64,000 bases of DNA from Vicinamibacterales bacterium (GTDB lineage Bacteria; Acidobacteriota; Vicinamibacteria; Vicinamibacterales; UBA8438). Position 1 is the stretch's first letter. Each line of letters starts with the position of its first letter. Made by a program: the position numbers and the translations under genes. The notes beneath the pieces are model-generated. The model was not told the origin of the DNA. It did no database searches and saw only the letters and a list, made by a program, of their open reading frames with translations. This document shows positions 22,752-50,275 of the stretch, one piece after another. The DNA lies in NCBI GenBank assembly GCA_965218825.1, contig OZ244656.1, positions 836,965-900,964 of the forward strand, read 5' to 3'.

Positions 22752-22990
22752 TAGTCCCCGAGGGGATCGACAGACGCGGCAGTCGTACTACGATGCCGAG
22801 CATGCGAGGAGACGACCGCCAGCCTGACGCTCTGTTTAGTTACGTGTCCGCCGAACAGCGGGTCCCGAAGAATCATCCGCTGCGCCGAATTCGCGCGCTG
22901 GTCGACGAGGTCCTGCACGACATGAGCCGGGAGCTCGACGGGCTCTACACCCCGCTCCGCTGGGCCCCCAGCGTGGTTGAGAATCCGTCC
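22752..22990 (+). mobile_element. IS1182/IS5-superfamily fragment (5' region and first ~45 codons of the transposase)
   Basis: ALFSYVSAEQRVPKNHPLRRIRALVDEVLHDMSRELDGLY (DUF772-type N-terminus). The upstream gaggggatcgaca...gtcgtactac resembles the left end of the IS at 48838. Confidence 0.6.
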
Positions 22991-23101
22991 ATGCACTAAC
23001 ATGCCAACTGGACCACCCGATGGGAGCTGGTCAAGTCTCTTGGCCCTGTCGTGTACCCTCCATTTCACCCGCGTTGCGGTGAACACGACGCACACTAGGC
23101 G

Positions 23102-29803: not shown

Positions 29804-30424
29804 TTATCGCTTATCCGTGAGACGCCAGAGAAACCACGCGGCGACGCTCCGAAGTGGACGCCACACTTCGGAGCGGGTCATGAGGAACTCCGGCGTTGGA
29901 CGCTCATCGAGCCCGTCCAGGACCCGAAGACCCTCCTGAACCCCGAGGTCGCCGCCAGGCATCACGTCGAGTCGACCAAGCTTGAAGATGAGAAACATCT
30001 GTGTCGTCCATTCTCCGATGCCCCAGACCGTTGTGAGCCTCCGGGTGACCTCATCGTCCGCAAGGCGCCCGATACTCCTCAGTCCGAGCTCCCCCCTCAC
30101 GGTCTTCTCCGCGAGATCCTTCAGCGCTCGCGCCTTATGCCCCGAGAGGCCAGCCCCTCGCAGCTCTTTGTCAGACAACGCCAATACGTGCTCGGGCACA
30201 GGGAAGCGGGGCCCCGGCGCCAGACTCCTGACACGACCGTAGATGGTGGCGGCAGCCACAGTCGCAAGCTGTTGGTAGATGATGGAACGGGCCAAGGCGT
30301 GGAAGTGCGAGCCGCGGAGCTTCCCGACCGGAAAATCTGGAAAGGGCGGGAGACCATTCATGGCCTTCGCGAGAACAGGATCCCGGCGCTTCAGCGCCCT
30401 CATCTCGGCCGTGGTTGGTTTCAT
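29804..30424 (-). CDS. DNA-3-methyladenine glycosylase II-like HhH-GPD protein (206 aa)
   Basis: LSGHKARALKDLA, TVWGIGEWTTQMFLIF, DVMPGGDLGVQEGL (HhH plus Gly/Pro-rich loop and catalytic Asp). Confidence 0.8.
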   Translation of the reverse strand: MKPTTAEMRALKRRDPVLAKAMNGLPPFPDFPVGKLRGSHFHALARSIIYQQLATVAAATIYGRVRSLAPGPRFPVPEHVLALSDKELRGAGLSGHKARALKDLAEKTVRGELGLRSIGRLADDEVTRRLTTVWGIGEWTTQMFLIFKLGRLDVMPGGDLGVQEGLRVLDGLDERPTPEFLMTRSEVWRPLRSVAAWFLWRLTDKR

Positions 30425-31542: not shown

Positions 31543-31709
31543 GTGTCGTAAACAGTCGTTGGACTAAACCGCTTCGCGGTAGACGGTAAATCGATAACCC
31601 GATCGTAAGACGCGCATCCGGGTTGTCCTTCCGACTCGGCATCTCTACTCCTCCCATACGCTCCTCACCGACGTCTGGCATCCACCAGGCCCTTTCGAGA
31701 GGAGCCGTC

Positions 31710-32579
31710 ATGACCGCCCTTCGCCGACGCATGCTCGAGGACATGCAAGTTCGCCATCTCTCCGCAGGGACGCAGCAGGTGTACCTGCAGCACATGGCCC
31801 GCTTCGCGCGCGACTGCGGCCGATCACCCGCGGTGTTGGGACCGGAGGAGATTCGGGCCTACCAGCTCCATTTGACGAACGAGAAGCAGCTGACGCCGGC
31901 GACCCTGGTCATCGTGGTCTCGGCTCTGCGCGTCCTTTCTCGGGTCACGCTGCACAAGACGTGGTCGATCGAGGCCGTCATTCCTGCACCGAAGAAACCG
32001 CAGACGTTACCGGTCGTGCTCAGCCCGGCCGAAGTGGTGCGGCTACTCGATAGCGTGAAGAACCTCAAGCATCGCACCATCCTGACGACCTGCTACGCCG
32101 CCGGCCTTCGCATCTCGGAAGCCGTGCGGTTGACCGTGTCGGCGATTGACAGCCAGCGGATGGTGCTCCGCATCGTCCAAGGGAAAGGGCAGCGGGACCG
32201 GTATGTAATGCTCTCCCCGAAGCTGCTGGCGATGCTGCGCGACTGGTGGCGAGTCAGCCAGCCTCAGCACTGGCTCTTTCCCGGTCATCACCCCGAGCGC
32301 CCGACGACGAGCCGGGTCGTCGACCGCGCCTGCCGCCAGGCCCGTCGTCGCAGCGGTCTCTCTAAGCCGGTGACGCCGCATTCGCTCCGACACGCCTTCG
32401 CCGTGCACCTGTTGGAAGCCGGCACGGACGTCCGCACCATTCAACTGCTGCTGGGGCATCGCAGTCTGGCCACGACGGCCCGCTACCTGCGCATCGCCAC
32501 GACGACGGTCTGCTCGACTTCCAGCCCGCTCGACCTGCTCCCCCGTCCCGGGGCACACACTCCGCCGCCAACCGACTGA
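31710..32579 (+). CDS. Tyrosine recombinase (XerC/D-like), of the type found upstream of some IS91-family transposases
   Basis: RBS gagaggag upstream. LTTCYAAGLRISEAVRL, HSLRHAFAVHLLEAGTDVRTIQLLLGHRSLATTARY. Confidence 0.85.
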   Translation: MTALRRRMLEDMQVRHLSAGTQQVYLQHMARFARDCGRSPAVLGPEEIRAYQLHLTNEKQLTPATLVIVVSALRVLSRVTLHKTWSIEAVIPAPKKPQTLPVVLSPAEVVRLLDSVKNLKHRTILTTCYAAGLRISEAVRLTVSAIDSQRMVLRIVQGKGQRDRYVMLSPKLLAMLRDWWRVSQPQHWLFPGHHPERPTTSRVVDRACRQARRRSGLSKPVTPHSLRHAFAVHLLEAGTDVRTIQLLLGHRSLATTARYLRIATTTVCSTSSPLDLLPRPGAHTPPPTD

Positions 32580-32588
32580 GGGTGGCTC

Positions 32589-33797
32589 GTGGATCGTTCG
32601 ACGCTGGACGTGGCGGACGTCTTCCGTCAGTACGGCGACACCTCTCGCGCCGAGGCCGGGGGCTCACTCTCGACGGCCGAGCGACGCGTCATGACCGCGA
32701 TCGAGGAGTGCCGGACTGCCGCCCTGGGTGGCCACGTCGAGCCGTGTGACCAATGCGGGCATCAGCGGGTCTGGTACAACTCGTGTCGTAATCGCCATTG
32801 CCCGACGTGCCAGTCCCTGGCACGCGCCGCGTGGATCGACGCCCGCCGAGCGGACCTGCTCCCCGTCGACTACTTCCACGTCGTCTTCACGGTCCCCCCG
32901 GCGGTCGCTGCCATCGCCTACCAGAACAAGGCCGTCGTCTATGGCCTCCTCTTCCGGGCGGTCGCCGAGACGTTGCGGACCATCGCGGCGGATCCCCGCC
33001 ATCTGGGCGCTCAGATCGGGTTCTTTGCGGTGCTCCACACCTGGGGGCAGACCCTGGTGCATCATCCCCACCTCCACTGCGTGGTCCCCGGCGGGGGGCT
33101 CTCGCCCGATGGCACGCAGTGGGTGTCGTGCCGCCCCGGGTTCTTCCTCCCGGTCCGGGTGTTGTCCCGGCTCTTTCGCCGCCGGGTCTTAGACGCCGTG
33201 TGCGACGCGTTCGAGACGGGACAGCTGCACTTCGCCGGCTCGCTCGACGCCCTCAACGATCGGCAGCACGTTGCCGACCATCTCCAGCCCACCCGGCAGA
33301 CCGAGTGGGTGGTCTACGCGAAACCGCCCTTCGCCGGGCCCAACCAGGTGCTCGATTACGTCGGCCGGTACACGCATCGGATCGCCATCTCCAACCAGCG
33401 GCTCCTCGCCCTCGCCGCGGGACAGGTCCAGTTCCGCTACACCGACTACCGCCGTCCCCACGCACCGGGTCAGAAGACCATGACCCTGGCCGCGACGGAG
33501 TTCATCCGGCGCGTCCTCCTGCATGTGCTCCCGCGCGGCTTCCACCGCATGCGGTATTACGGCCTGCTCGCGAATCGGACACGGCACCAGCACGTGGCGC
33601 AGTGCCGACAGCTCCTCGGCGCTCGGTCAGCGACCCGGCCGGACGCCACCCCGGTGTCCATCGACTATCGGGATCGCTATCACGCCCTGACCGGACGGTC
33701 GTTGCGCCTCTGTCCCCGGTGTCACGACGGGCAGATGCAGCTCGTCGACGGCCTGGTCGCCACCGCTCGTCGCCCCGCGATTCTGGATTCGTCATGA
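32589..33797 (+). CDS. IS91-family Y2/HUH transposase (402 aa)
   Basis: CDQCGHQRVWYNSCRNRHCPTCQ, FAVLHTWGQTLVHHPHLHCVV, YVGRYTHRIAISN. Confidence 0.9.
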   Translation: MDRSTLDVADVFRQYGDTSRAEAGGSLSTAERRVMTAIEECRTAALGGHVEPCDQCGHQRVWYNSCRNRHCPTCQSLARAAWIDARRADLLPVDYFHVVFTVPPAVAAIAYQNKAVVYGLLFRAVAETLRTIAADPRHLGAQIGFFAVLHTWGQTLVHHPHLHCVVPGGGLSPDGTQWVSCRPGFFLPVRVLSRLFRRRVLDAVCDAFETGQLHFAGSLDALNDRQHVADHLQPTRQTEWVVYAKPPFAGPNQVLDYVGRYTHRIAISNQRLLALAAGQVQFRYTDYRRPHAPGQKTMTLAATEFIRRVLLHVLPRGFHRMRYYGLLANRTRHQHVAQCRQLLGARSATRPDATPVSIDYRDRYHALTGRSLRLCPRCHDGQMQLVDGLVATARRPAILDSS

Positions 33798-34511: not shown

Positions 34512-35360
34512 CTAGTTTGCCAAGAACCTATCGATGGCCGAATGTGTCACTACTCTCGGAGCGGTTCTTCGCACGAGTCGCCGTTGACTTTTCAACCGAC
34601 CACTATCGTTCGCAAGGCCACTGAGCGCAAAGCACTCCAGCTTCAACACGCGGGCAAACGTCATCGCCAAATCGACCATTTGCTCCGTAGTTTCCAGCTG
34701 CTGACGCAAGTTGCCAGAAATCGAGGCCGGGAATTTCGTTGGATCCAAAGCAGCAGGAAAGGCCTGTGATGTCTCGAACGCGCAGAACATGTCATAGGTG
34801 ACTGCGTTCCTTGTGGTCGTTTGCCACACCAAGTCGGTCGGTGGCGTAAGGGCTCCAGCAAGACCCAGTGGGGCCCAAGGCCTGACCTTCGCCGCCGAAT
34901 CGTAAAAGAACGCCCAGAAAGCGCCGTGAGTCCCTGGTGCATGAGCCGGCAGTGGAGGGTTACGGGTGATCAGGAATTCTTGGCTATCCGGCATTTGCGC
35001 GAGAACGTCAATCACTGTTCTTTTGCCCTCGGTCTTCACATACCCACCAAACATCCCAAGAATAGCGTTTGCAGCGAAGAACGAAGAGTAGTACAGAGTC
35101 ACGTGTGCCCACGGCGCGGCTACAGGTACCAACATATCAAGGGCACGCCGATAATTGCTAGCTGAGTAGAGAAGCCAACGTTCAACGGAGCTCAATAGTG
35201 CGAGTCGGTAGGTATCAAAACGCGGCTCACCCTCACGAAGATGGGTCACTCTCTTGAAGTCCTCTACCACTACCTTTACAGAACGTGGGACGCCAGTCGG
35301 AGGCGTCGACAACGGTCTACAGAAATGCTCAGAACCAGGGTCTAGATCAAATAAGTTCAT
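34512..35360 (-). CDS. Hypothetical protein, possible degenerate HEPN-like partner of the DGQHR protein (282 aa)
   Basis: Helical pattern. ..HVTLYYSSFFAANAILG.. and ..TTTRNAVTYD.. (RN-x3-Y instead of RN-x3-H). Sits 9 bp downstream of the DGQHR gene. AT-richer than the flanks. Confidence 0.4.
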   Translation of the reverse strand: MNLFDLDPGSEHFCRPLSTPPTGVPRSVKVVVEDFKRVTHLREGEPRFDTYRLALLSSVERWLLYSASNYRRALDMLVPVAAPWAHVTLYYSSFFAANAILGMFGGYVKTEGKRTVIDVLAQMPDSQEFLITRNPPLPAHAPGTHGAFWAFFYDSAAKVRPWAPLGLAGALTPPTDLVWQTTTRNAVTYDMFCAFETSQAFPAALDPTKFPASISGNLRQQLETTEQMVDLAMTFARVLKLECFALSGLANDSGRLKSQRRLVRRTAPRVVTHSAIDRFLAN

Positions 35361-35369
35361 AGAAACCAG

Positions 35370-36350
35370 TCAATCGATAAAGACTTGCTTTGCAATCTCC
35401 TTGTAAAGGTCTCTCACACCAGCTGTGCCTTGCGCCCTGCGAACCGCCTCATCGGAAAGCGTCTCGGGTTTGATTTGTTTAAACATTTTTCGCAACGCTC
35501 GTGTTGTCAGTGTCTCGATCGGTCTGTCTTGCATCATCTTGTCGAGCACACGAATCATCGCCCGCAGGACACGAGCTCGGAAAAATGGTGATTTCGCATC
35601 ATCCCACTCATCTGGATTGAGCGATCGAATGGCCGTAAAGAATCGCACAAACAGAGCCAAGTAGTCGTCAAAGCCAGTGTCAGGAATCCTCTTCAGATGT
35701 CTCTTTAGAAGAGTTCTGATTTCAGGCGCCAACGAACCCTGCCTTATCGTCAGCGACCTACGTTCCGTATCCTCCCCCGTCAGATCGATCTGTCTCTCGG
35801 CAGCAAACGGACTCTCGTCTTCTGTCGCCAACGCGTAGACGATATCCGACGTCATTACCGTGGCCTGATCTTCGCTGCGGCGAGCAAGACGGTACAGGTC
35901 CCATCTCAGTGACGACGGAACTCGCCGTTGAGTGGCATTGATCTCCAAAAATAGCTCTGCCATCTGAGCTTCACTACGATTCATGTGAATCACACATGGG
36001 TAGAGACCTTCCACCTCAGAGTACTCCTGTGCGTACAGACGATGCTGACCATCTACAACCAGGAACTTCGAAGTCTGCGGTAGCATGAGGCAATTACTGA
36101 CCTGCTTAAACGTCTTTGCGGTGGTTGCAAGCACAATCGCGTTTGGAAAAGCTCTGCTCTCGTCCAACACCGTATGTGCGATCGCCTTCGCACGTGTTTT
36201 ATTGACGATGCGTTGAAAGCCCTTTTTGGGCTTCTTTATGCGCCAAGATGGCGTTGCATGGTCCAGGAGCCATTTTCCCGGCAGGGCAGTCAGGTAGATG
36301 TCTGGATCTGTCCGCAAGACAATAACCTGAGAATTCTTTGGGGGCGTCAT
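35370..36350 (-). CDS. DGQHR-domain (DndB-like, ParB/Srx superfamily) protein (326 aa)
   Basis: Literal motif FLVVDGQHRLYA. Upstream ..GFQRIVNKTRAKAIA.. as in DndB-type proteins. Confidence 0.75.
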   Translation of the reverse strand: MTPPKNSQVIVLRTDPDIYLTALPGKWLLDHATPSWRIKKPKKGFQRIVNKTRAKAIAHTVLDESRAFPNAIVLATTAKTFKQVSNCLMLPQTSKFLVVDGQHRLYAQEYSEVEGLYPCVIHMNRSEAQMAELFLEINATQRRVPSSLRWDLYRLARRSEDQATVMTSDIVYALATEDESPFAAERQIDLTGEDTERRSLTIRQGSLAPEIRTLLKRHLKRIPDTGFDDYLALFVRFFTAIRSLNPDEWDDAKSPFFRARVLRAMIRVLDKMMQDRPIETLTTRALRKMFKQIKPETLSDEAVRRAQGTAGVRDLYKEIAKQVFID

Positions 36351-37712: not shown

Positions 37713-38999
37713 CTACTGTGATTGGTTCGCTCGTGCGACTTCGCACTTCTTTTTCTTGCGGCCATGAATCTGAACGAGGTTGTCTGGAATAGGTACCGGG
37801 AACTGATGATCTTGGCCCATCTCAATCAAATCCCACGCGAACTCGCGCAACTCGAAACCATCAGAGGATTTCTTTTCTTTGCGGACAACCGGTATCTCCG
37901 GGTACTGCCGCGTGTCCGGGCGGTCGCGTAACTGAAACGCCTCATGGAAGCCACTCGCGTCAAGGAATTTTTGGACGAGCCCCGCGTACGGTGGGAAGGC
38001 GCCACCGTAGCCGATCACCCGCCGTGCGGCTGCCACCATCTCCAGCTCTTCTTTCGTCCACGTGGGGGCGACGTAGGAGTCCTTCTCAAAGGCATGTTCT
38101 CCGCTTAACGGCTGGTACCGCATCGGGTACGCACTCACGCCCCACGCGAGGAGGTCGCTCACGCGCTTATAGAGATCCGCTGGCGTGTCTTTGTAGTTGT
38201 AGAGGACATAGCAGCAAATGTGACGGAATCGGCGGTTCGTCAGTCCAGCTTGTTTCAGCAGCAGAACGGCCCTCTTGACCGCCTTCTCCATTTGAGAAAA
38301 ATCGTACGCCAACCGGATCGTCGGCAGCTTCAACCCCTTGAGCGCCTCCGCAACATTCTCAGTCACCAGTCGTGCATCGAGGCCCTGGTTGAAGTCCACT
38401 TCGACATTCAGTTCCTTCAACTCAGCGATTACGTCGCTCCATGCCGATTCGCCAAGAATGTTGTTGTCCCACAGAATCACGCGCTTGTGGTCCGGATGCA
38501 CAAGATGTTTCACGCGCGTGGTAGGCCGCGCCTGGAACGGCTTGCCCTCCAAGGCGGGAACGGCACAGAACGCACAACTCCGGATACACCCGCGATGACT
38601 AAAGAGGATCGAAGCGGCGCGTTCACCTTCAGCCCATTCTGGCACGAGCGAATAGTCTGGCATCAGGTCTTCAGCTTCATGAACGAGACCCGCGACAACC
38701 TCGTGAGCGCCGCTCTGCTGCGCGTGTTCCGGAGTCAATGAGGCATAGATACCACCGAGCGATACCTTCGCTTGCGGAAACAGAGCCTTGTAGAAGGCCA
38801 CGGCTTCCCACACTGGCTTCCATGCCCAGGTAAACAGGCTCGTGACTTTGATCTGGTCTGGCACGAACTTCGTCACGAGCTTCAGCCCATTGACGAAGTG
38901 AATGTCGTGCCCCTGTGACTTGTAGAGCGTGGACAGTTTCAATAGGCCGAGCGGCGGATACTGTGAGTAGTAGCTTGGTTCTACGAGGAGGATCTTCAT
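37713..38999 (-). CDS. Radical SAM enzyme with a B12-binding-like N-terminal domain (428 aa)
   Basis: MKILLVEPSYYSQYPPLGLLKLSTLYKSQGHDIHFV (class-B-like N-terminus). CxxxCxxC cluster in SHRGCIRSCAFCAVP. Confidence 0.8.
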   Translation of the reverse strand: MKILLVEPSYYSQYPPLGLLKLSTLYKSQGHDIHFVNGLKLVTKFVPDQIKVTSLFTWAWKPVWEAVAFYKALFPQAKVSLGGIYASLTPEHAQQSGAHEVVAGLVHEAEDLMPDYSLVPEWAEGERAASILFSHRGCIRSCAFCAVPALEGKPFQARPTTRVKHLVHPDHKRVILWDNNILGESAWSDVIAELKELNVEVDFNQGLDARLVTENVAEALKGLKLPTIRLAYDFSQMEKAVKRAVLLLKQAGLTNRRFRHICCYVLYNYKDTPADLYKRVSDLLAWGVSAYPMRYQPLSGEHAFEKDSYVAPTWTKEELEMVAAARRVIGYGGAFPPYAGLVQKFLDASGFHEAFQLRDRPDTRQYPEIPVVRKEKKSSDGFELREFAWDLIEMGQDHQFPVPIPDNLVQIHGRKKKKCEVARANQSQ

Positions 39000-39286
39000 T
39001 GCACGGCTACTGTGCTGGCATCAGTGATAGGAGCGGACGGCTCGATGGTCCGATCCTTCCATGCACGGATGCGCTCAATGTCCGCATCAGTATAGAAGCG
39101 GTGGTTGGAATGGGCGATGCGAGGAGGCGCGGGAAAGTCAGCGTAGCGCGGGTCGCCACTCGCCTTCTTCTTCTCCCATCGGAAGAGCGTGTCTTGGTTG
39201 CGCCGGTAAGTTTTGGCACTTTAGCGTTTCGATGCGGGCTCGCCAGTTCTTCTCCCCTTGCGACCACGTTCAACCCTGACCACCAT
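38996..39286 (-). pseudogene. AlpA/MerR-like HTH gene with an in-frame TAA, coupled (ATGA) to the radical SAM gene
   Basis: MVVRVERGRKGRRTGEPASKR*SAKTYRRNQDTLFRWEKKKASGDPRYADFPAPPRIAHSNHRFYTDADIERIRAW.. TAA at 39221-39223. There is no alternative start downstream of the stop. Confidence 0.45.
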
Positions 39287-39436
39287 GACAGGAGAGGTCG
39301 CTACTCGCTGCTGGAACTACGTTGGTCCATATCGATTTCCGTGCATAGAATAGCATCGATCGAATCAGTACCGGGCAATACTTATCGACTTGAATTAATC
39401 AAGACGGTACCTGTCGGTACCATAAGGGGAAGTGTG

Positions 39437-40507
39437 ATGGAGACGATAATTGAAGTGGAAGAGGTGATGGTCGGCGGGCAGATGCTGCGGCTCAAGCACG
39501 AGAACATCCCGATCGATCAGTTGGAGTTGGACCCGGACAACCCACGCATTAGATACCGGCTCCAACACCAGAAGCCTGGCGGCGAACAGGAGCAGGAACT
39601 GCTCGGCTGGCCGGACGTGATCAGGCTCCGCAAGGACATCGAGAAAAGTGGTGGCCTGCGTGAGCGCATCATCGTCCAGTGGGACCCGAGAACGAAGAAA
39701 TACAAGGTCATCGAAGGCAACTGCCGAACGGTGTCCATCCGCCACCTAAACAGCAAGAATCCAAGCGACCAGAAATGGCAAACGGTCATCGCCAAAGTGT
39801 TGCCGCCCGACGCTGACAGGCGGGCCGTCGCCATTCTGCTCATGGATTTCAACGTCGTCGGCAAGATCCAGTGGAAGGCTCATGAGAAGGCGGCGCAGGT
39901 CTACCTGATGCACACCGATCTGAAGATGACCCTCGACGAGATCGCGCTGTACATGAGGACCAGCAAGACGACGGTGCAGCGGCTCCTACATGCCCACAAG
40001 GCGATGAACGAACTGTTCCTAACGATGGACGACGGATTGTACGAGAAGAAGGGCGAGGGTGCGTGGAGTTTCTTCGATGAACTATATAAATCCCCTGAAC
40101 TGCGGAAGAAGATGAAGGCTGAGCCTGAGTTCGTTGAGGATTTCTGTCGGTGGGTCGGCGACGAACGGCTGACGGCGGGGGCCGACGTGCGCATGCTGCC
40201 GAAGATTCTCAAGGACCCGGTGGCCGTGAAAAAGTTCACGATGGGACCGGCTAATACGGCGTTTCAGGACGCCAAAAAGCTCGTCGCGCAGGCCGAGCCG
40301 GAGATCGGAAGCGACTTCTTTAAGCTCCTAGAAAAAATGCGGCAGGCCTGCACGGACGCGGCGCATGTGAAGGAGATCCTGAAGATCCGCCGCGACAGGA
40401 TCGCGCGCCAGCGATTGATCGATACGTACGATGCACTTGTCGGGTTCATGCAACTAGCGGACGTGAACCCAGAGAAAGTCACAACTAAGCAGAATAAGTC
40501 CTCCTAG
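39437..40507 (+). CDS. ParB-like N-terminal domain protein P1 (356 aa)
   Basis: RBS aagggga. IPIDQLELDPDNPRI, KVIEGNCRTVSI, KIQWKAHEKA, HTH-like LDEIALYMRTSKTTVQRLL. Start taken at the internal ATG of ORF 38915..40507. Confidence 0.7.
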   Translation: METIIEVEEVMVGGQMLRLKHENIPIDQLELDPDNPRIRYRLQHQKPGGEQEQELLGWPDVIRLRKDIEKSGGLRERIIVQWDPRTKKYKVIEGNCRTVSIRHLNSKNPSDQKWQTVIAKVLPPDADRRAVAILLMDFNVVGKIQWKAHEKAAQVYLMHTDLKMTLDEIALYMRTSKTTVQRLLHAHKAMNELFLTMDDGLYEKKGEGAWSFFDELYKSPELRKKMKAEPEFVEDFCRWVGDERLTAGADVRMLPKILKDPVAVKKFTMGPANTAFQDAKKLVAQAEPEIGSDFFKLLEKMRQACTDAAHVKEILKIRRDRIARQRLIDTYDALVGFMQLADVNPEKVTTKQNKSS

Positions 40508-40750
40508 CAGCCCGTGGTGAAAGTAAGGGACCGACACGAGATCCGCTGTACTACACTCTGCGCGGCCACCCGTTCTACCAGCGCTGGAAATCAGGTACAT
40601 GACGCGCACTCCTCCGACGAGCTCGTCGAGAGCCAGTGCGTCCCTTTCTACGCGGACGGGGTTGGTCGGCCGAGTCTGACATCGGGCACGTACTTCCGCC
40701 TCCTGTTAGTCAGGTGCTTCGAAGGCATCGATTCGGAGCGCGGCTTCCTC
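40506..40750 (+). mobile_element. IS1182-like left-end fragment
   Basis: agcagcccgtggtgaaagtaaggg.. equals the IR at 48838. Translated FYADGVGRPSLTSGTYFRLLLVRCFEGIDSERG parallels FYAPVMGRPSLAPGRYFRLLLVGYFEGIDSERG of the 48909 transposase. Confidence 0.65.
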
Positions 40751-40856
40751 GGCCTGAAGCCTCGACGAAGCGCCGCCTGAGCACTCGACGATCTCGCGCA
40801 CGCATCTGGCCCTGAAAGCAGCACGGTCTTCTTGGTCACTGCGTCGAGAACTCGGC

Positions 40857-41873
40857 CTAAGGGGTAGTGGACTTCCCGGCGAGTTCGGCGTCGACCATTT
40901 GGGAAACACGTCTCAGGCGCCGGCTGATTTGCCTGACGACCTGCTGCACGGCCTTCACTTGGTTGCGCTCCAGGGGGGCAAGGTCGTCCAGCTCGATGTC
41001 GTCCAGACCCTCGCGGATCTTCTTGAGTCGCTGTTCGGCACCGCTGATCTTTGCGCGGTCATGGGCATCCTCGAGAGTCACGTCGCCCTTCTCGTATTTT
41101 CGAAGGATTTTAGGCTTTGCGATAATGGTGGGTAGGCGTTCGCGCATCTCTTGAGCAGTGAAGTCCCTTGTCTTGATCTGGGACAACAATGTGCCTCGTA
41201 GTGGTCTGCTACCTTCGATTGCAGACGAGATGGCCCGGTTTCGAACAAGGACGTAGTAATAGCTGAAGTTGGAGAGAGTGTTGTCGTCGTTCTCCTGCAT
41301 GAACTCGATGGTCTTGACGTTCTTCTTGATCTCGGCTGTCGTGAAGCCGGACAAGTCCGCCAAGGTCGAGATGTCTTGTTGTTCTTCGACCGCCCAGCGG
41401 AAGCAAAACAGCGCCTTGGCGTACGGGGACCACTCGGTTTTCCCGTGAAGATGTGACTGGCCAAGAAGGCGTGTCTGTTGATCAGCGCTAAGGGTCTTGA
41501 CGACAAGGCAGCGGATCTGTGTCCAGGTCTCGTCGGCGGGGTGTTCATCATCGAGCTTGCGGTAGGCCGCCAGGCGGGAATTGCCTTCGATGACTTCCTG
41601 AGTGTCCCAGCGGACGATGATCGGATCTTGTAATCCACCGTCTCGTTGAATTTCAGGTATGAGGTTCTTGACGCTCGACTCGTGGAGCAGGCGCTCGTAT
41701 ATGCGACGCTGCTGCTCTTCGGGGGTGAGGCCTGGGAAATCCGCCATTTCTCTGATGGCGGCGTATACGCGGGGGTTGCCAGACAGGAAGCGGAGCTTAT
41801 GGATCGGGATTAGCTGGTGGTTGGCGGGAACGTCCTGTCCCATTATGGCGATGGTCGTCTTGTCGAGGTTCAT
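40857..41873 (-). CDS. ParB-like N-terminal domain protein P2 (338 aa)
   Basis: IPIHKLRFLSGNPRV, EVIEGNSRLAAY, KTEWSPYAKA. Start at the internal Met MNLDKT, 30 nt after the SNF2 stop. Confidence 0.7.
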   Translation of the reverse strand: MNLDKTTIAIMGQDVPANHQLIPIHKLRFLSGNPRVYAAIREMADFPGLTPEEQQRRIYERLLHESSVKNLIPEIQRDGGLQDPIIVRWDTQEVIEGNSRLAAYRKLDDEHPADETWTQIRCLVVKTLSADQQTRLLGQSHLHGKTEWSPYAKALFCFRWAVEEQQDISTLADLSGFTTAEIKKNVKTIEFMQENDDNTLSNFSYYYVLVRNRAISSAIEGSRPLRGTLLSQIKTRDFTAQEMRERLPTIIAKPKILRKYEKGDVTLEDAHDRAKISGAEQRLKKIREGLDDIELDDLAPLERNQVKAVQQVVRQISRRLRRVSQMVDAELAGKSTTP

Positions 41874-41902
41874 CGGTCTGTAGTCTTGGATTCTTCGGAA
41901 GA

Positions 41903-43372
41903 TTATTGGTTGGAGGTGACTCGATCGGGAAACAGGACGCCTTGGAGCACCTCGGATATGTCCGTGCGGAAGGAGTCGCGGAAGGCGACGGCGGCAATGT
42001 CGCCCTGGGCGAGTTGCGCGGCCCGGTACTTCGCCATGAGCAGGACGTCGACCCATTCGTCGATGGTCTCATTGGCAATGAGATTGTGGATGAAGCACTC
42101 GCGTGTCTGGGAGATCCGGTGGATGCGGTCTTGTGCCTGCAGATAGTCGTCGAGGCTGAAGCCGCGATCGTAAAAGATGGCGTGGTTCGCGACGGTCAGC
42201 GTAAGGCCCTCCTTGGCGGCGCCTGGCGTCGCGATGAGGACTAAGTTGGATGAGTTGGTGAAGGACTGCACCGCCTGGTTTCGCTGGTGCATGGGCAAAG
42301 AGCCGTGTATGCATACAGGGTCAAATTCGGCGAGCTTCTCGGCTAGCCAGTTGACGTTGTCGACGAATCCAGTCCAGATGATCAACTTGGATCCGACGGT
42401 GAACTCCCAGCACATGTCGAGGAGCAGAGGGAACTTCGCAGGGTCGTGCTCGTAGCGCCCATCAATAAGCGCCGGGTTCGAGGCGCATTGGACGAGGCGC
42501 AGGAGTCGCTTGAGAATGCTGTCAACGTTGTCGATTTCGACAACGCCGTCGGTGTCGTACTCGTAGGCGAGTTCGTCGCGGTAGGCGGCGTACTTCGCCA
42601 TCTGCCAGGGGGGCAAGTCCACATGGTGGAAAGTTATGGTTTTCTCAGGCAGGTGGATGCCCGCGGTGTCCTTGGTCTCTCGGACAGTGAACTGGGCGAG
42701 GCGTTGATGGATCGTGGCCAGGCGGTTGCCATAGTCAGACGCTGCCGAGTGCCTGGCGGGCAAATCCATTTGCTGCCTGAATGCGTCGAAGGTGTCGCCG
42801 AGCGCTTCGCCGCCGTCCAGGAACTTGATCTGCGACCAGATGTCGTACGGACGGTTCGCGGCAGGGGTGCCGGTCATGATGATGCGCCGCTCGAAGGACG
42901 AGGCCACGTCGTGGAACGTGCGCGTCAGGGCGGCTTCGGGATTCTTAATTTTTTGGCTCTCGTCTAGGATGCAGCCGACGCGGCAAGTCTGCAGGAACAG
43001 TCTAATGACTGGGCCGTTGGCCGCGATGACTTCGTAGTTGGTGATGTAGAGGAGTGCCGGCGAGTTGAGGGACGCGCTATTCTGGACTCGATTGCCGGAC
43101 AGAATGTGTGGCGTGATATGGCAGTGCCGCGTAACTTCGTTGCGCCAGTTTTCCACCAGCGACTTCTTGGTGACGACGAACACGGTATCCACGGCATCGC
43201 TCTGTAGCCATTGCAGGGCGAGGTCGATCGCGATCTTCGTCTTTCCGAGACCCTGCTCATGGAAAATGGCGGCGTACGGAAGATCCTTGACGGCGCGGAA
43301 GGCGTCGAGCTGGTATGGATACGCCGCGTGCTTAGGCGACAGTTCAGGCTGGCGTCTCAGCACAAACGCCAC
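41903..43372 (-). CDS. SNF2-family helicase/ATPase (489 aa)
   Basis: HEQGLGKTKIAI (I), CILDESQKIKN (II), IIMTGTPAANRPYDIWSQIKFL (III), ATPGAAKEGLTLTVANHAIFYD (V), QAQDRIHRISQ (VI). Confidence 0.9.
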   Translation of the reverse strand: MAFVLRRQPELSPKHAAYPYQLDAFRAVKDLPYAAIFHEQGLGKTKIAIDLALQWLQSDAVDTVFVVTKKSLVENWRNEVTRHCHITPHILSGNRVQNSASLNSPALLYITNYEVIAANGPVIRLFLQTCRVGCILDESQKIKNPEAALTRTFHDVASSFERRIIMTGTPAANRPYDIWSQIKFLDGGEALGDTFDAFRQQMDLPARHSAASDYGNRLATIHQRLAQFTVRETKDTAGIHLPEKTITFHHVDLPPWQMAKYAAYRDELAYEYDTDGVVEIDNVDSILKRLLRLVQCASNPALIDGRYEHDPAKFPLLLDMCWEFTVGSKLIIWTGFVDNVNWLAEKLAEFDPVCIHGSLPMHQRNQAVQSFTNSSNLVLIATPGAAKEGLTLTVANHAIFYDRGFSLDDYLQAQDRIHRISQTRECFIHNLIANETIDEWVDVLLMAKYRAAQLAQGDIAAVAFRDSFRTDISEVLQGVLFPDRVTSNQ

Positions 43373-43809
43373 AGGGGTGCTCCAAGGGGACCCAGGGTCC
43401 AGAAGTCGAGGCCGTCGAACAGTTTTACGTGGAGTCGGGACGACACGCGTTGGCGGCAGGCGAAGCGGAGTACCGTCCTTGCTGAATATGCGACGTGTCC
43501 GTTGACGGCCAAGATGAAGGTGCCGGTGCCTGTTGTCATGGCGTCAAGGTGGTCCACGAAGGCACCGATCTGACTCCGAGTATGTCGGTTGTCGATGTCA
43601 CCGTCGGTCTTGGCTTCCGCGATGACGAACTGGAGGCAGGCGGCGGTGCATCGGGCGATGATGTCGGGACGGTGGGCGCCGATGCGCTGGGGCACCGGGT
43701 CGCCGGGAGCGTCGAGGAGGTCCGTTGTGACGTGCATCGCCGGATGACGCTGTTGTATGGCTTGTGCGGCGGCGATGACTAGCCGACGGTGCGCGTTACT
43801 TTGAGACAT
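43357..43809 (-). CDS. Small PD-(D/E)xK-type nuclease-like protein (150 aa)
   Basis: ..IGAHRPDIIARCTAACLQFVIAEAKTDGD.. (PD ... ExK). Overlaps both neighbours (14 nt and 16 nt). Confidence 0.55.
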   Translation of the reverse strand: MSQSNAHRRLVIAAAQAIQQRHPAMHVTTDLLDAPGDPVPQRIGAHRPDIIARCTAACLQFVIAEAKTDGDIDNRHTRSQIGAFVDHLDAMTTGTGTFILAVNGHVAYSARTVLRFACRQRVSSRLHVKLFDGLDFWTLGPLGAPLWRLC

Positions 43810-44830
43810 CTTGGAGCAGGTCGCGAAGATGGTCGGCGAGGTCGCTCAGCGTATCTACGTCTTGGTCCGCGGTCTCGTATTGCCGGTCGCGGAGGGCAAG
43901 GTAGTCCCCTCGCGGCAGGGCTTTGATCCTCTGAAGCAGCACCTCAGCCAATACCGCCATGCTGGCATTGGCGACAGTGGTGTCGATCGACGAAGGATTC
44001 ATGTCCTTTTGACGGTTGGCCTCGGCAACGGCGATGGCGTCTTCGATAGACCGGATGCCGCCGTTGACAAAGGTGTCTTTCGCCTCGTCGTCGGCAAGAA
44101 CGCGGGGTAGCCTTCGAACGTCGGCCAGTCGGTATATCTGGCCGTCGCGTATCCAGCGGCCGAAGTCGTGGAGGTCAAAACCCGCGCTGTAGATGGAGTC
44201 CTTGACATCCCTGTTCTGGAGCTCGACAAAGCCGCTGAATCGATCGACCTTGAACGCGTCGTCGCTGTTGACGTCGCGGTAGAACTCGTTCATGTCGTGG
44301 TAGGCGTCGATTTGCTGGGTGATCGTCTTCTTGTTGCCCCCGCACCGGGCGATGAGCTCGTCGTAATCCATGAACTCGACGTTGCGCAGGTGGTGAAGGT
44401 ATCGGGCCTTCTCGTAGGCGGGCCATTCGCGTGCGCCGACGAGGTGGGCGGTGACCCGAATCGTCTCAATGTCCCGCTGGTCGGGATTGTCGAGCACGAG
44501 GCAGTTGATGGCGGTCCAGTCGCCTGGAGCGCTCTCCTCGTCGAGCTCATAATAAACGGCTAGTCGGGTGTTGCCGTCGACGCACACGAATCGACCGTTG
44601 TCGGACCAGACGACAACAGGTACCGAGATGCTTCCAGCCGCTCTGATGGAGTCCTTTAGAGAGCGGTAGGAGGAAGCGCTGGCGGATCCTTCCGTGGCGG
44701 TCTGTAGTGCAAAGCGGATGCGTTGATCGTCGAGCTTGTCGCCGTACTTCTCCAGAGCAACCTTGATCCTCGGGTTCTGCCGGTCGAAGTCAATCTGGCT
44801 GGTGGGGATGAGGTGGTATGTGCTCTTCAC
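43796..44830 (-). CDS. ParB-like N-terminal domain protein P3 (344 aa; GTG start)
   Basis: IPTSQIDFDRQNPRI, FVCVDGNTRLAVY, AREWPAYEKA. Same architecture as P1 and P2. Confidence 0.7.
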   Translation of the reverse strand: MKSTYHLIPTSQIDFDRQNPRIKVALEKYGDKLDDQRIRFALQTATEGSASASSYRSLKDSIRAAGSISVPVVVWSDNGRFVCVDGNTRLAVYYELDEESAPGDWTAINCLVLDNPDQRDIETIRVTAHLVGAREWPAYEKARYLHHLRNVEFMDYDELIARCGGNKKTITQQIDAYHDMNEFYRDVNSDDAFKVDRFSGFVELQNRDVKDSIYSAGFDLHDFGRWIRDGQIYRLADVRRLPRVLADDEAKDTFVNGGIRSIEDAIAVAEANRQKDMNPSSIDTTVANASMAVLAEVLLQRIKALPRGDYLALRDRQYETADQDVDTLSDLADHLRDLLQDVSK

Positions 44831-45160
44831 GATAGTCTCACGTCGCTAGATGTCGTGGCGTCGTGGGTCTAACAGCCCGTGGAAGAAGTCTGTTCGCTGA
44901 GCCAGCCCGGTCAGGCAGCTTGGCAATGAGCGATTGAGCCGACGAACGCCGCCGGTGTCTATTTGGACCCCCAAGCGAAAGTCAGACGCCCCCAGCGGTC
45001 GATCCTCCACGTCTTCGATGTGAACAGGTATCCGTCATCGCGAACGACCAGCCGCCGCCGCAGGTTTACAGCCGACCACATAGAGTAACAAGAATTGCGC
45101 GCGGATACCCCCGTTGCTCCGCCTCCCCGGTCCCTCGCCGGCCGTCAAATTGGTGCGTGA

Positions 45161-46719: not shown

Positions 46720-47462
46720 CTACCGGGAATCTCCACCGAGATACTCGGCCCAGTCGTCCATCAGGTGCCGGCGGCGCTCGAACAGGTCCGAGCGCGCGTA
46801 GGCCGCCTCGACCTTGTTCTGGACGACATGCGCCAGCGCCGCCTCGATGACCTCACGCGGGTGATTGGTTTCTTCGGCCGCCCAGTCGCGGAAGGACGAC
46901 CGGAACCCGTGCGGGACGGCCGCGATTTGGTGCGTCCGGAGTAGCTGGACCAGCCGCTGGGCGTCCAGGGGCTTCCCGCGCGGCGTGGGAAACACGAGCG
47001 GGCTGCGGCCGTCACCGATCGTTCGCGTCGCCGCGAGGATCTCGAGGGCCCGCCCACACAACGGCACCCGGTGCTCCCGGTTCGCCTTCATCCGCGTGGC
47101 GAGAATGGTCCAGACGTGGTCCGTCGTGTTGATCTCGTCCCACGTCGCCAACCGCACCTCGCCCGATCGTGCCGCGGTCAACACCAGGAACTCAAACGCC
47201 AGTGTGACGACTGGCGCCGTGTCCGACGCCCGCACAGTCGCCAGCGCCGCCGCCACCTCTCGATGGGGCAGCGCCTGTCTGTGCTGCACGTGGTCCTGCT
47301 GCGGACCCAGCACCGGCCCGAGCCGGTCGCACGGATTGTCCGCACGATAGTGCATGGCGATGGCCCACTCCATCACGGCATGGATGCGTTGCTGGATGCG
47401 CCGCGCTGTCTGCCGCTTCACGTGCCAGATCGGGGCGAGGATCCGCACGGCGACATCTCGGT
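46720..47462 (-). pseudogene. P4-like tyrosine integrase, C-terminal catalytic half only
   Basis: ..ILAPIWHVKRQTARRIQQRI..., LTAARSGEVRLATWDEI, HRVPL, HGFRSSFRDWAAE, LAHVVQNKVEAAYAR. The N-terminal 150 aa of the 406-aa ORF is antisense to cas1. Confidence 0.75.
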
Positions 47463-47910
47463 GTTGCGCGGCATCGAGGGCGCCAAGATGAAGGCAACCT
47501 ATCGTCTGGTGGCGATGCAGATTGGAATCACTTGGCAGGGACGGCGCTACGACCGTGCCCGGCCGATGGCGACCGACCTCCCAAACCAGGCGCTGAACCA
47601 TGCGGCGAGCGCAGTTGAAGCCGCCGCAGCCATCGCCGTTGCAGCAACGGCCACCGTCCCGCAACTCGGCTTCATTCATGAAGATGCCGGACAATCCTTC
47701 GTACTCGACATCGCTGATCTGTTTCGCGACTCCGTCACCATCCCCACGGCGTTCCGCGCGGCCAAGAAAGCCCTGAGAGACACGGCCAGTGAGAACATTG
47801 AACGCGTGACACGACGAGAGACCGGGCGCACGCTCAGCCGGGAACGGACGATTCCGAAAATGATCGAGCGGATCAAGGATCTGTTCGAGGATCCGGCGGC
47901 GAAAGCGTAA
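47461..47910 (+). pseudogene. cas1: cas1 (type I-E), C-terminal half only
   Basis: LRGIEGAKMKATYRLVAMQIGITWQGRRYD...LGFIHEDAGQSFVLDIADLFR parallels E. coli Cas1 from about residue 130 onward. The upstream half is replaced by the integrase fragment. Confidence 0.8.
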
Positions 47911-47917
47911 GTTTGCG

Positions 47918-48235
47918 ATGCCCACGACCGTGGTCGTCACGCGTGACGTCGAACGGAGATATCGAGGCTTTCTCGCCTCAGTGATGCTTGAGATTGCACC
48001 CGGCGTTTATGTGTCGCCAGACCTCTCAGCTGGGGTGCGCGAGCGTATCTGGTCGGTGTTGGAGGATTGGTTCGGCGCGCTCGGCAACGGTGCCGTTTCT
48101 ATGATTTGGCGCGATGGTTCCGCCGATGGCGGCTTGGCACTCCGCTACCTTGGAGATCCGCCAAAGGAGATCTGCGAAGCCGACGGGGTCCTCCTCGTCA
48201 GGAGATTGCAAGGCACTGACGCTGGGTCTTGTTGA
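47918..48235 (+). CDS. cas2: Cas2 (type I-E)
   Basis: TTVVVTRDVERRYRGFLASVMLEIAPGVYVSPDLSAGVRERIW.. resembles E. coli Cas2 ([32 protein letters not shown]). Sits immediately upstream of the array. Confidence 0.85.
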   Translation: MPTTVVVTRDVERRYRGFLASVMLEIAPGVYVSPDLSAGVRERIWSVLEDWFGALGNGAVSMIWRDGSADGGLALRYLGDPPKEICEADGVLLVRRLQGTDAGSC

Positions 48236-48293: not shown

Positions 48294-48810
48294 AGGCTTC
48301 CCCGCACACGCGGGGATAGACCTGGAGGCCCGTGACGATCCCAAGGCCAGCGACGGGCTTCCCCGCACACGCGGGGATAGACCCAATTGGAGCTGCCGCC
48401 GCCCCTGTGGCGCCTGGGCTTCCCCGCACACGCGGGGATAGACCCCAGCGCAGCGTCGATGCCGATCGGATCGGGGTGGCTTCCCCGCACACGCGGGGAT
48501 AGACCCCTCAAACAGCATCCTGGGCGCAATCAGTGGAGGGCTTCCCCGCACACGCGGGGATAGACCCGTCATCACTTGCTGGCCTTCTTCCTCGAGACCG
48601 GCTTCCCCGCACACGCGGGGATAGACCCTTCAGCCCGTCACCTCTGGGTGGTGGGCTGGCGGCTTCCCCGCACACGCGGGGATAGACCCTAGTTGACGAA
48701 GGTGAACGCGATCCCGACTTCGGCTTCCCCGCACACGCGGGGATAGACCCAGTTCAAGGTATGGCCCTGGGCTCACGCGTTCGGCTTCCCCGCACACGCG
48801 GGGATAGACC
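48294..48810 (+). CRISPR. Type I-E CRISPR array: 9 repeats of 29 nt, 8 complete 32-nt spacers, 61-nt period
   Basis: Repeat GGCTTCCCCGCACACGCGGGGATAGACCC starts at 48294, 48355, 48416, 48477, 48538, 48599, 48660, 48721 and 48782. Repeat 1 ends in T. A ninth spacer (48811-48837) is cut by an IS end. Confidence 0.95.
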
Positions 48811-48837
48811 CGTCTCAGGTAGACGTGGAAGCGCTCT

Positions 48838-50275
48838 TAGCAGCCCGTGGTGAAAGTCGAAGTTATGAGGGATCGACACAATCGATCCGTCGTACTACAC
48901 TGACGCGCATGGCTATGGGAACGCGCGAGACGGATCAACCGCCGCTGTGGATCGCGACGTCGGACCTGCCCACCTCGCCGGGCCATCCGTTCTACGCGCG
49001 GCTGACGACGCTGCTCGACGGGCACCCCTTCGATCGGTTCGTCGAAGGCCTGTGTGACCGGTTCTACGCGCCCGTGATGGGCCGACCGAGCTTGGCACCC
49101 GGGCGCTACTTCCGCCTGCTGCTGGTCGGCTACTTCGAAGGCATCGACTCGGAACGCGGGATTGCGTGGCGCGCGACGGACTCGTTGGCGGTCCGCAGCT
49201 TTCTGCGGTTGGCCGTGGACGAGGCGCCGCCCGATCATTCGACGATTGCGCGCACGCGGCGCTTGATCGATCTGGAGACGCACCGGACCGTCTTTACGTG
49301 GGTGCAACAACGACTCGTCGAGGCCGGCCGTCTGAAGGGCAAGACCATCGCGATTGACGCCACGACGCTCGAGGCGAACGCGGCGATGCGCAGCATCGTC
49401 CGCCGGGACACCGGCGAGAGCTACCAGGCGTTTCTGGCGGGTCTCGCGACGGCCTCGGGGATCGAGACGCCCACGCGCGAGGGTCTGGCGCGACTGGATC
49501 GGAAGCGGAAGAAGAAGACCTCGAACACAGACTGGACGAACCCCCACGATCCCGATGCGAAGGTCACGAAGATGACAGATGGCCGCACGCATCTGGCGCA
49601 CAAAGCCGAGCATGCCGTCGACATGGAGACCGGCGCGATTGTCGCGGTGACACTGCAAGGTGCCGATGTCGGCGACACCACGACGATCATCGAGACCGCC
49701 ATCGCCGCGACCGAGCAGGTCGAAGACGCGCAGGCCAACGTTGACGATCGGCAGTCTCTGGAAGAGATCGTCGGTGATAAGGGGTATCACAGCAATCAGA
49801 CCCTGATCGACCTGGACGCCGTGGGTATCCGGTCCTACGTGTCCGAGCCGGACAGGGGGCGACGTGATTGGTCGAAGGATCCCGCGGCCCGGGCGCCGGT
49901 GTATGGCAATCGTCGCCGGATGCGGGGACGACGCGGCCGCCGCCTGATGCGCCAACGCGGCGAACGGATCGAACGCTCGTTTGCGCATCTCTACGACACG
50001 GGCGGGATGCGGCGCACCCATCTGCGCGGCCACACGAACATCCTGAAGCGCCTCCTGATTCATGCGGGTGGCTTCAATCTCGGGCTCGTCATGCGTCATC
50101 TGATCGGGATCGGCACGCCGCGCGGGCTGCAGGGCCGCGTGGCCGCTGTTCTTGCGACGTTAGGGGTGCTCATGGGCGTCGTCCGACGTCGGCTCACCAC
50201 GATTTCGTCGTCGCATCGACTCATCCCGGCCGTGCAAGGTCGGCTCGCGTCACTGGCCACGTTTGCCGTCAACTC
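48838..50275 (+). mobile_element. IS1182-like (IS5 superfamily) element, right end missing
   Basis: Left IR agcagcccgtggtgaaagt. No inverted copy of it precedes 50276, where the modular-repeat L junction starts. Confidence 0.75.
48909..50275 (+). CDS. IS1182/IS5-superfamily DDE transposase (3' end replaced; the ORF reads through into repeat copy 7)
   Basis: GRPSLAPGRYFRLLLVGYFEGIDSERGIAW, IAIDATTLEANAA, GDKGYHS, RSFAHLYDTGGMRRTHLRGHTNILKRLLIHAGGFNLGLVMR. Confidence 0.8.

Follow-up and report, generated by a model that had tools for sequence, protein, structure and literature searches.

We analysed the region between positions 37,713 and 44,830 of a 64,000-nt stretch of DNA (the window) from a Vicinamibacterales bacterium (contig OZ244656.1, GCA_965218825.1, positions 836,965-900,964; all positions below are window coordinates unless a comparison contig or replicon, designated by an L number, is named). 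The original prediction for this region, made from the sequence alone, had described a single candidate DNA-modification/defence locus, with a radical S-adenosylmethionine (SAM) enzyme, three ParB-like proteins (P1, P2 and P3), an SNF2 helicase and a PD-(D/E)xK nuclease. All six open reading frames (ORFs) are present where it had placed them and on the same strands, but the region consists of two mobile cassettes, which we called Unit A and Unit B; independent of each other, they belong to a single, uncharacterised superfamily whose common core is a ParB-superfamily protein and a radical SAM enzyme with a B12-binding-like domain. Unit A (40816-44830, minus strand) corresponds to genes one to four of a six-gene cassette that is 7.1 kb long, and Unit B (37713-40507) is a separate three-gene cassette, in which P1 is divergent from a pair formed by a MerR-like helix-turn-helix (HTH) gene and a radical SAM gene. 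Both units are damaged in the window, Unit A being truncated and the HTH gene of Unit B being broken.

Unit A is the front part of a six-gene cassette

Scanning one genome per GTDB species retrieved 17 loci related to Unit A, 12 of which carry a complete cassette with the gene order P3, a 150-amino-acid PD-(D/E)xK-motif protein (hereafter PD-ExK), SNF2 ATPase, P2, a B12-like radical SAM enzyme of ~548 amino acids and a GHKL ATPase (HATPase_c_3, ~490-500 amino acids). The five others comprise three that are broken by insertions, probably of insertion sequences (IS), one ended by a contig edge and one with P3 alone. The hosts of complete cassettes belong to Vicinamibacterales, Binatia, Alpha- and Gammaproteobacteria, Bryobacterales, Poriferihabitaceae and Pseudomonadales, and an extra complete copy, found via protein look-up, is present on a Palauibacter contig. 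More than 800 homologues of P3 were found, the best 120 of which are 76-96% identical to it. DNA homology between the loci extends over ~7.1 kb, from ~10 bp before P3 to the stop codon of the GHKL gene, and the flanks are unrelated. The radical SAM, SNF2 and P3 genes are the best conserved across the loci, and divergence is fastest for P2, the small protein and the ATPase. Of the gene combination first noticed in the window, the four-gene set recurs, as part of the six-gene cassette and without the radical SAM-HTH-P1 unit. The blocks of the cassette are rearranged in L013 and L017, and in L013 no ParB-type gene lies directly beside the radical SAM gene.

In the window, Unit A is collinear with the cassette of L001 (L001 9990-17130) from 44848 to 40817, with 90.6% nucleotide identity and the spacer between P2 and the radical SAM gene kept; the two SNF2 proteins are 93% identical. 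The remnant at 40839-40816, MTKKTVLL, corresponds to the start (MTKKNVLL) of the 548-amino-acid radical SAM enzyme of L001 and lies next to an IS fragment, and no trace of the rest of this gene or of its ATPase was found anywhere in the 64-kb window. Unit A is thus truncated, having lost its radical SAM and GHKL genes through an IS-associated deletion after codon 8 of the former, and what had been taken for a whole four-gene operon is an incomplete front part. We take this copy of Unit A to be, in all likelihood, a relic that works only in part or not at all. On the upstream side, homology to other cassettes ends at 44848-44872; L014 alone continues to 45105, and carries IS5/DUF772-type transposase fragments upstream of its cassette.

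The tight coupling described for these genes was borne out for the 14-nt and 16-nt overlaps of the PD-ExK gene with its neighbours, the gap between the SNF2 gene and P2 being 29 nt and not 30. The N-terminus of the PD-ExK protein, MSQSxAHRxLV, is conserved in an alignment of 12 homologues that includes the Rhizobium one, so the 150-amino-acid form is the real one and the overlaps are genuine; the shorter, 126-amino-acid start given by gene callers in other genomes was ruled out by this conservation. In the same 12 sequences M1, H7, D30, P48-D49 and E65-A-K67 are invariant and display the D...(P)D...(D/E)xK motif, from which we regard the protein as a putative PD-(D/E)xK nuclease; it has no match in Pfam, PADLOC, NCBIfam or the PDB sequences. 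The identification of the next gene product as an SNF2 ATPase holds, with Pfam SNF2-rel_dom (PF00176; E 8e-28, 97.8 bits) and Helicase_C (PF00271; E 3e-15, 56.9 bits) both passing their cut-offs, and with helicase motifs I-VI readable in the translation (GLGKT, DESQ, TGTP and QAQDRIHRISQ among them).

Unit B is a separate three-gene cassette

Unit B was compared between the window and six other loci (L021-L023 and L026-L028). Its layout is identical in all seven, a P1-type gene occupies the same position in each of the six others, the copy in L026 being truncated to 215 amino acids, and these six have nothing besides in common. The locus L022 shares 93-97% identity with the window from 34.1 to 40.7 kb, and its Unit B has no adjacent Unit A. 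Since Unit B stands alone in six loci, L022 included, the two units do not form one locus as originally proposed, and in the window they are joined merely via an IS fragment.

The HTH gene product matches Pfam MerR_1 (E 6e-4), as do its homologues. Its ATGA overlap with the start of the radical SAM gene, which had been noted before, was confirmed, but the gene is frameshifted and a pseudogene here: it has no usable start and contains an in-frame stop, and relative to L022 it carries a 1-bp deletion and an ATG to CTG change.

In four of the seven loci, the three-gene cassette has a transposase gene of the IS1595 family next to it (L021 7181-8152, L023 5111-6052, L026 3389-4366 and L028 9311-9688). 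The gene is always oriented toward the cassette, which it adjoins at the P1 end in one lineage and at the radical SAM end in another; the IS1595 subfamily follows the cassette lineage, and in L023 the gene is 12 bp from the radical SAM stop codon. The three-gene cassette may travel as IS1595 cargo.

The ParB-like proteins and the radical SAM enzymes

Structures were predicted for P3 (with AlphaFold2) and for the 428-amino-acid radical SAM enzyme of Unit B, and both were compared with known structures by Foldseek. As had been proposed, P1-P3 are paralogs throughout their length (hhalign probability 98.9-99.6%, with 98.9% and 99.6% for the P2 family against the P3 and P1 families, respectively), and the motif [DE]GNxR is invariant in the alignments of the three families. 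The P3 model (predicted local distance difference test, pLDDT, 72.7) matches ParB-CTP, Noc and KorB with E-values of 1.5e-6 to 1e-4, and also PadC and sulfiredoxin, the range extending to 4e-3, so P1-P3 are predicted to belong to the ParB/Srx superfamily at fold level. Hidden Markov models (HMMs) give weak ParB-like support, namely the N-terminal domain of PADLOC PD-Lambda-5_A for P1 (E 2.5e-9) and ParB-like families of PHROG (E 6e-7 to 2e-4). None of the three proteins matches a Pfam family, ParB_N included.

The radical SAM enzyme of Unit B contains the sequence GCIRSCAFC (CxxxCxxC), the cysteines of which (C138, C142 and C145) are invariant in the family alignment, and an N-terminal B12-binding-like Rossmann domain, for which the Pfam score is 22.6 bits against a cut-off of 32.1. 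NCBIfam matches are confined to the cluster-binding loop. The model of the protein (pLDDT 73.8) has AprD4 (7.9e-8) and MgmA (1.2e-7) as Foldseek matches and also resembles BlsE and SuiB, which places it in the radical SAM superfamily. Together, the CxxxCxxC motif, the N-terminal domain and the AprD4 and MgmA matches agree with its description as a B12-like radical SAM enzyme; AprD4 itself has a B12-binding-like domain without using cobalamin. The 548-amino-acid enzyme of Unit A is ~30% identical to that of Unit B, and its match to Pfam Radical_SAM is sub-threshold. Family profiles of P3, the small protein and the radical SAM enzyme gave no significant match against PDB sequences.

The family of the 428-amino-acid enzyme is large, with 3137 matches (the best 120 being 63-98% identical) and 183 clusters at 50% identity and E<=1e-30, and the enzyme matches phrog_9298 with an E-value of 8.5e-62. 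Three phage members lie beside or near DNA methyltransferases, one of them also with a PAPS-reductase gene two genes further upstream, and the stand-alone phage genes of L029-L031 have no ParB-like partner. In Bacteroides phage BI-TP1 there is a DNA methyltransferase on each side of the radical SAM gene, separated from it by one short gene, and the PAPS-reductase gene is upstream of these. In bacteria, the association between radical SAM and ParB-like proteins that had been suggested for the window recurs in the two independent cassette families.

Modular forms in cultured strains

More distant copies, in cultured strains, were found by tblastn against plasmids, and are present in Rhizobium, Novosphingobium, Roseomonas and Bradyrhizobium (Table 1). 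All four share a core formed by a DGQHR protein, a radical SAM enzyme and a GHKL ATPase, and two of the four also have P2. From these plasmid arrangements and the rearranged blocks of L013 and L017, we distinguish a recurring core with optional parts. The core, module M, consists of a ParB-superfamily protein (DGQHR in the cultured strains, P2 in some arrangements from metagenome-assembled genomes), a ~540-amino-acid radical SAM enzyme and a GHKL ATPase. Module R, comprising P3, the PD-(D/E)xK protein and the SNF2 ATPase, with P2 at the junction, is an optional add-on, and plasmid pNL1 carries the DGQHR-radical SAM-GHKL core without it. Further optional parts are a large DGQHR protein (three loci) and a pair formed by a PIN-like protein (~640 amino acids) and a GHKL paralog (~530 amino acids), found in four loci (L024 1829-5345, L025 4947-8500, L008 17156-20606 and L033 2665-6109), for neither member of which PADLOC or NCBIfam has a name. 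The DGQHR partners fall in the DndB/DpdB domain family, and in a profile search of the GHKL protein the ATPases weakly resemble the N-terminal domain of Hsp90/HtpG.

Table 1. Genes and remnants of the two units in the window, stand-alone phage radical SAM genes, and plasmid-borne arrangements in cultured strains
Feature	Position	Strand	Remarks
Solo IS5-like end fragment	44873..45105	+	~40 bp from P3; delimits Unit A on the upstream side
P3, predicted ParB/Srx-fold protein, 344 amino acids	43796..44830	-	First gene of Unit A; motifs NPRIK, DGNTRL, REWPAYEKA
PD-(D/E)xK-motif protein, 150 amino acids	43357..43809	-	Motif and N-terminus conserved in 12-sequence alignment
SNF2-family ATPase, minimal, 489 amino acids	41903..43372	-	Pfam SNF2-rel_dom and Helicase_C
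P2, ParB-like paralog, 338 amino acids, full length	40857..41873	-	PIIVR...VIEGNSRLAAYR; C-terminus agrees with P2 of L001
Remnant of the radical SAM gene of Unit A, 8 codons (MTKKTVLL)	40816..40839	-	Start of ORF 40648-40839
IS5/DUF772-family element, left end, truncated	40506..40815	+	Occupies the place of the remaining radical SAM and GHKL ATPase genes
P1, ParB-like paralog, 356 amino acids	39437..40507	+	Divergent from the HTH-radical SAM pair
MerR-like HTH gene, pseudogene	38996..39273	-	Stop overlaps radical SAM start (ATGA)
B12-binding-like radical SAM enzyme, 428 amino acids	37713..38999	-	CxxxCxxC at residues 138-145
Radical SAM gene, Marinitoga camini virus 1	L029 4992-6074		44% identity
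Radical SAM gene, Clostridium phage phiCT453B	L030 4001-4876		
Radical SAM gene, Bacteroides phage BI-TP1	L031 3974-4891		
R. leguminosarum WSM1325 pR132505			P3, small protein, helicase, P2, DGQHR, radical SAM, ATPase (seven genes; intact cassette RLEG_RS34120-34150); PIN-like and second ATPase alongside
N. aromaticivorans pNL1			PIN-like and ATPase; DGQHR, radical SAM, ATPase; 769-amino-acid DGQHR protein
Roseomonas mucosa p2-AD3			P3, small protein, SNF2, P2, convergent with DGQHR, radical SAM, ATPase
Bradyrhizobium sp. 187 p187_1			PIN-like and ATPase; DGQHR, radical SAM, ATPase, convergent with P3, small protein, SNF2

Genomic context

The IS ends and the AT-richer composition that had been reported for the block were both found. 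The IS-end motif CAGCCCGTGGWRRAAGT occurs four times in the window against 0.07 occurrences expected, and the block has a GC content of 56-61%, against 63-69% in its flanks. A full IS5/DUF772 element at 48838 has one occurrence of CAGCCCGTGGWRRAAGT as its left end, and the matches at 40508 and 44873 mark the IS fragments flanking Unit A. The fragment at 40506-40815 is 75% identical to the full copy (48834-49159), and an N-terminal fragment of the transposase can still be read in it. A megablast of the region against plasmids returned nothing beyond one 93-bp match, tblastn of P2 against phages gave zero matches, and a promoter and terminator scan of the region did no better than on shuffled sequence.

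The window as a whole is a mosaic of defence and IS genes, including cas1-cas2-CRISPR, an Mrr-helicase, a PLD-helicase and DGQHR genes. Of cas1 only the C-terminal part is present (47071-47910; Pfam positions 147-252), abutted by a tyrosine-integrase fragment on the opposite strand (46720-~47450), and it is followed by cas2, which is type I-E-like (47918-48235), and by a CRISPR array of nine identical repeats with a 61-bp period (48295-48810), terminated by the IS5/DUF772 element inserted at 48838. Elsewhere in the window, 21755-26416 and 53702-57181 encode a PLD/ResIII fragment, a 1104-amino-acid metallophosphoesterase protein and a 1159-amino-acid Mrr_cat_2 and ResIII helicase; an HhH-GPD glycosylase gene is found at 29804-30424 and an integrase and IS91 pair at 31623-33797. 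Next to Unit B, a DGQHR protein (326 amino acids, TIGR03187 E 7e-32; 35370-36350) and a 282-amino-acid protein directly downstream are encoded on the minus strand (34512-36350), and the same pair is present in L022 (13384-15223). It looks like a separate two-gene unit, the DGQHR subtype of which differs from those encoded upstream of the radical SAM genes of the cultured strains.

Two different cassettes also share one insertion site. The intergenic site between parA and gidB, which adjoins the chromosomal parAB near the origin region, holds a six-gene cassette in L017 (7718-20085), a P3-only remnant in L018 (5142-16726) and a three-gene cassette in L021 (6212-12829). This site could be an insertion hotspot or reflect a tie to ParB biology.

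Proposed function and alternative explanations

By analogy, we lean on balance towards a Dnd/Dpd-like modification-plus-restriction system, in which module M would mark DNA and module R would read the mark and cut. This proposal is drawn from DpdB, a ParB-like ATPase that is required for DpdA to insert preQ0 into DNA, and from three pointers to a nucleic-acid substrate: partners of the DndB/DpdB type (the Dnd system has DndB as its ParB-like partner), a module combining a nuclease-motif protein with a DNA translocase, and the occurrence of the radical SAM enzyme in phages, in some cases near DNA methyltransferases. On the model of DpdA/DpdB and Dnd, loading of the ParB-like NTPase onto DNA would assist the radical SAM enzyme in chemically marking either DNA or a nucleotide, and the GHKL ATPase would serve as clamp or regulator. 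Depending on this mark, DNA would be scanned and cut by P3 together with the PD-ExK nuclease and the SNF2 translocase, and the three-gene cassette would be a version limited to modification, or a regulatory one. A more specific proposal, which we hold only tentatively, is that the core formed by the ParB-superfamily protein, the B12-like radical SAM enzyme and the GHKL ATPase installs a new, radical-generated covalent DNA mark, read by P3, PD-ExK and SNF2. If true, this would represent a new epigenetic self/non-self chemistry, present across many bacterial phyla and borrowed by phages.

Several points weigh against a role in DNA modification and restriction. The nearest solved radical SAM structures are ~13% identical and match at fold level only, and AprD4 acts on a sugar and MgmA on a protein, neither of them on DNA. 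An affiliation of P2 with canonical ParB or with the DGQHR clade was dropped, given that its profile aligns with the canonical ParB of L021 with an hhalign probability of 2% (not significant) and has no significant match with the DGQHR protein, so the ParB assignment rests on one medium-confidence model and on weak HMM matches. The functions of all cassette members are inferred by analogy, and the three-gene cassette, which has neither nuclease nor helicase, may have another role. A module R that cut unmarked DNA should be harmful once module M is gone, yet the four genes are intact here. The expected location in defence islands holds in part: in raw occurrence, known defence genes are frequent in the flanks of 14 loci (NsnA/B, mad3, AriA, AbiLi, GmrSD_N and type II restriction endonuclease genes), but several loci lie amid housekeeping genes.

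The cassettes might instead serve the mobile elements that carry them (IS1595-type transposons, plasmids and phages), through anti-restriction self-modification, addiction or maintenance. Amino-acid identities of 70-96% across phyla, together with unrelated flanks, point to recent horizontal spread, and copies are found on conjugative plasmids and in phages; the IS1595 transposase adjoins the three-gene cassette in four of seven loci, with its subfamily tracking the lineage, and this form has no nuclease. We nevertheless consider this explanation rather unlikely: defence systems have the same mobility pattern, the nuclease-motif protein and the translocase of the large form would be superfluous for self-protection, and the side on which IS1595 lies varies, with no shared terminal repeats established. 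An alternative centred on nucleotides would have the radical SAM enzyme make a modified nucleotide, in a viperin- or oxetanocin-like manner, while the ParB-like proteins bind the NTP substrate (CTP or ATP) or sense foreign DNA, and the SNF2, nuclease and GHKL proteins trigger or carry out, as sensors or effectors, a response that is abortive or chain-terminating. The resemblance of P3 is greatest to CTP-bound ParB, Noc and KorB structures, and AprD4, the nearest solved radical SAM enzyme, dehydrates a sugar diol, a reaction formally near viperin chemistry on the ribose of CTP; the absence of a partner in phages would also fit. A chain-terminator synthase would, however, be of little benefit to a phage, and the phage copies lie near DNA methyltransferases. 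There is also no similarity to the PADLOC viperin/pVip models, and [DE]GNxR, a putative NTP-binding motif, is without the first Arg of the ParB GERR box. A nucleotide-analogue response appears distinctly improbable.

A ParB-based module for plasmid or chromosome partition, conjugation or chromosome organisation would account for the ParB fold, for the presence of two different cassettes at the parA-gidB site near the origin (L017/L018 and L021), and for the ParA gene found ~1.6 kb from the Roseomonas copy. Yet no cassette contains ParA, as a ParABS system would, P1-P3 fall below Pfam ParB_N and the canonical ParB of L021 cannot be aligned to the P2 profile; the partners are a radical SAM enzyme, a nuclease-motif protein, SNF2 and a GHKL ATPase, and most copies are chromosomal islets beside IS elements. 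We therefore regard such a module as very improbable.

Among DNA-targeting systems for defence or modification, we know of none described earlier that has a B12-like radical SAM enzyme at its centre. The cassettes reach across many bacterial phyla and into phages and, if the modification and restriction reading holds, would involve DNA or nucleotide chemistry not yet catalogued. The window chiefly illustrates cassette decay in an IS-rich defence island and, both of its copies being damaged, is a poor source for cloning; intact plasmid copies are available in the culturable and tractable strains R. leguminosarum WSM1325, N. aromaticivorans DSM 12444 (pNL1) and Roseomonas mucosa AD3.

Comparison with known systems

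The proteins encoded in the window (eight ORFs within 34.5-44.8 kb) and in the intact Rhizobium and Novosphingobium loci were searched with the models of Pfam, NCBIfam release 20 and PADLOC-DB 2.0, and gave no match at cut-off or over full length to a named system, in agreement with the original prediction; the libraries name nothing but generic SNF2, DGQHR and HSP90-like domains. No description of radical SAM/ParB-like cassettes turned up in the literature, most subscription journals being outside the coverage. Identity with Dpd, Dnd, Zorya, DISARM or PD-Lambda-5 was rejected, with partial, sub-threshold matches and partner genes missing, and Ophion (radical SAM, PHP, PRTase) is a different radical SAM system.

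The SNF2 protein shares its ATPase core with ZorD, DrmD and DpdE (PADLOC ZorD E 8e-39, DpdE 5e-29). However, only the helicase core of these much larger proteins aligns (NCBIfam ZorD 63 bits against 1500), the cassette has no ZorABC or DrmABC, and its nuclease-motif protein is a separate 150-amino-acid gene product. For the PADLOC systems PD-Lambda-5 and PDC-M38, similarity covers ~100-180 N-terminal residues of models of 430-715 residues (E 2.5e-9 to 1.9e-7), with no match to the B protein.

With cobalamin-domain radical SAM enzymes (AprD4 and MgmA; class B-like) the 428-amino-acid protein has in common a Rossmann-type B12-binding-like N-terminal domain and a CxxxCxxC barrel, but the identity of ~13% and NCBIfam matches limited to the cluster loop set it apart. 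The ParB-like proteins resemble the ParB, Noc and KorB CTPase clamps in that a ParB/Srx fold is predicted at the N-terminus, with a helical, HTH-like region after it, and the segments PIIVR...EGNSRLAAY and K/RxxWxxYxKA resemble ParB boxes II and III. In contrast, the GERR box is replaced by [DE]GN[STC]R, nearer to the DGQHR/DGQQR type, and P1-P3 have no ParA partner and no significant profile match to canonical ParB.

The likeness to Dnd and Ssp is in the two-module logic, with separable modification and restriction, a ParB-like partner of the DndB type and frequent lateral transfer. With PADLOC, Pfam and NCBIfam, no DndA, DndC, DndD, DndE or SspA-D was found in the window ORFs, L024 or L025, only DGQHR/DndB-type domains, and the sole Pfam DndB match is the DGQHR gene at 35370-36350, which belongs to the separate two-gene unit; for the window ORFs, this agrees with the reported absence of dndA/C/D/E, ssp and dpdA genes. 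The Dpd system differs in its TGT-like DpdA and in DpdC, neither of which was found in the eight window ORFs or in the Rhizobium and Novosphingobium loci, and in its scores, with 53.6 bits against 300 for the DpdB model (53-63 bits for the DGQHR proteins overall) and 31.8 against 500 for DpdE. The candidate modifier of the cassettes is a B12-like radical SAM enzyme, and their core includes a GHKL ATPase. Like Dpd, they form a multi-gene island in which a ParB-superfamily NTPase (DpdB; here DGQHR, a putative one) is paired with a base-modifying enzyme (here a candidate), with SNF2-like helicases on the restriction side, and in the cultured strains a DGQHR protein is encoded directly upstream of the radical SAM enzyme. 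We infer that the family represents a ParB-partnered, multi-module island of the modification/restriction type with a radical SAM enzyme, so far unnamed.

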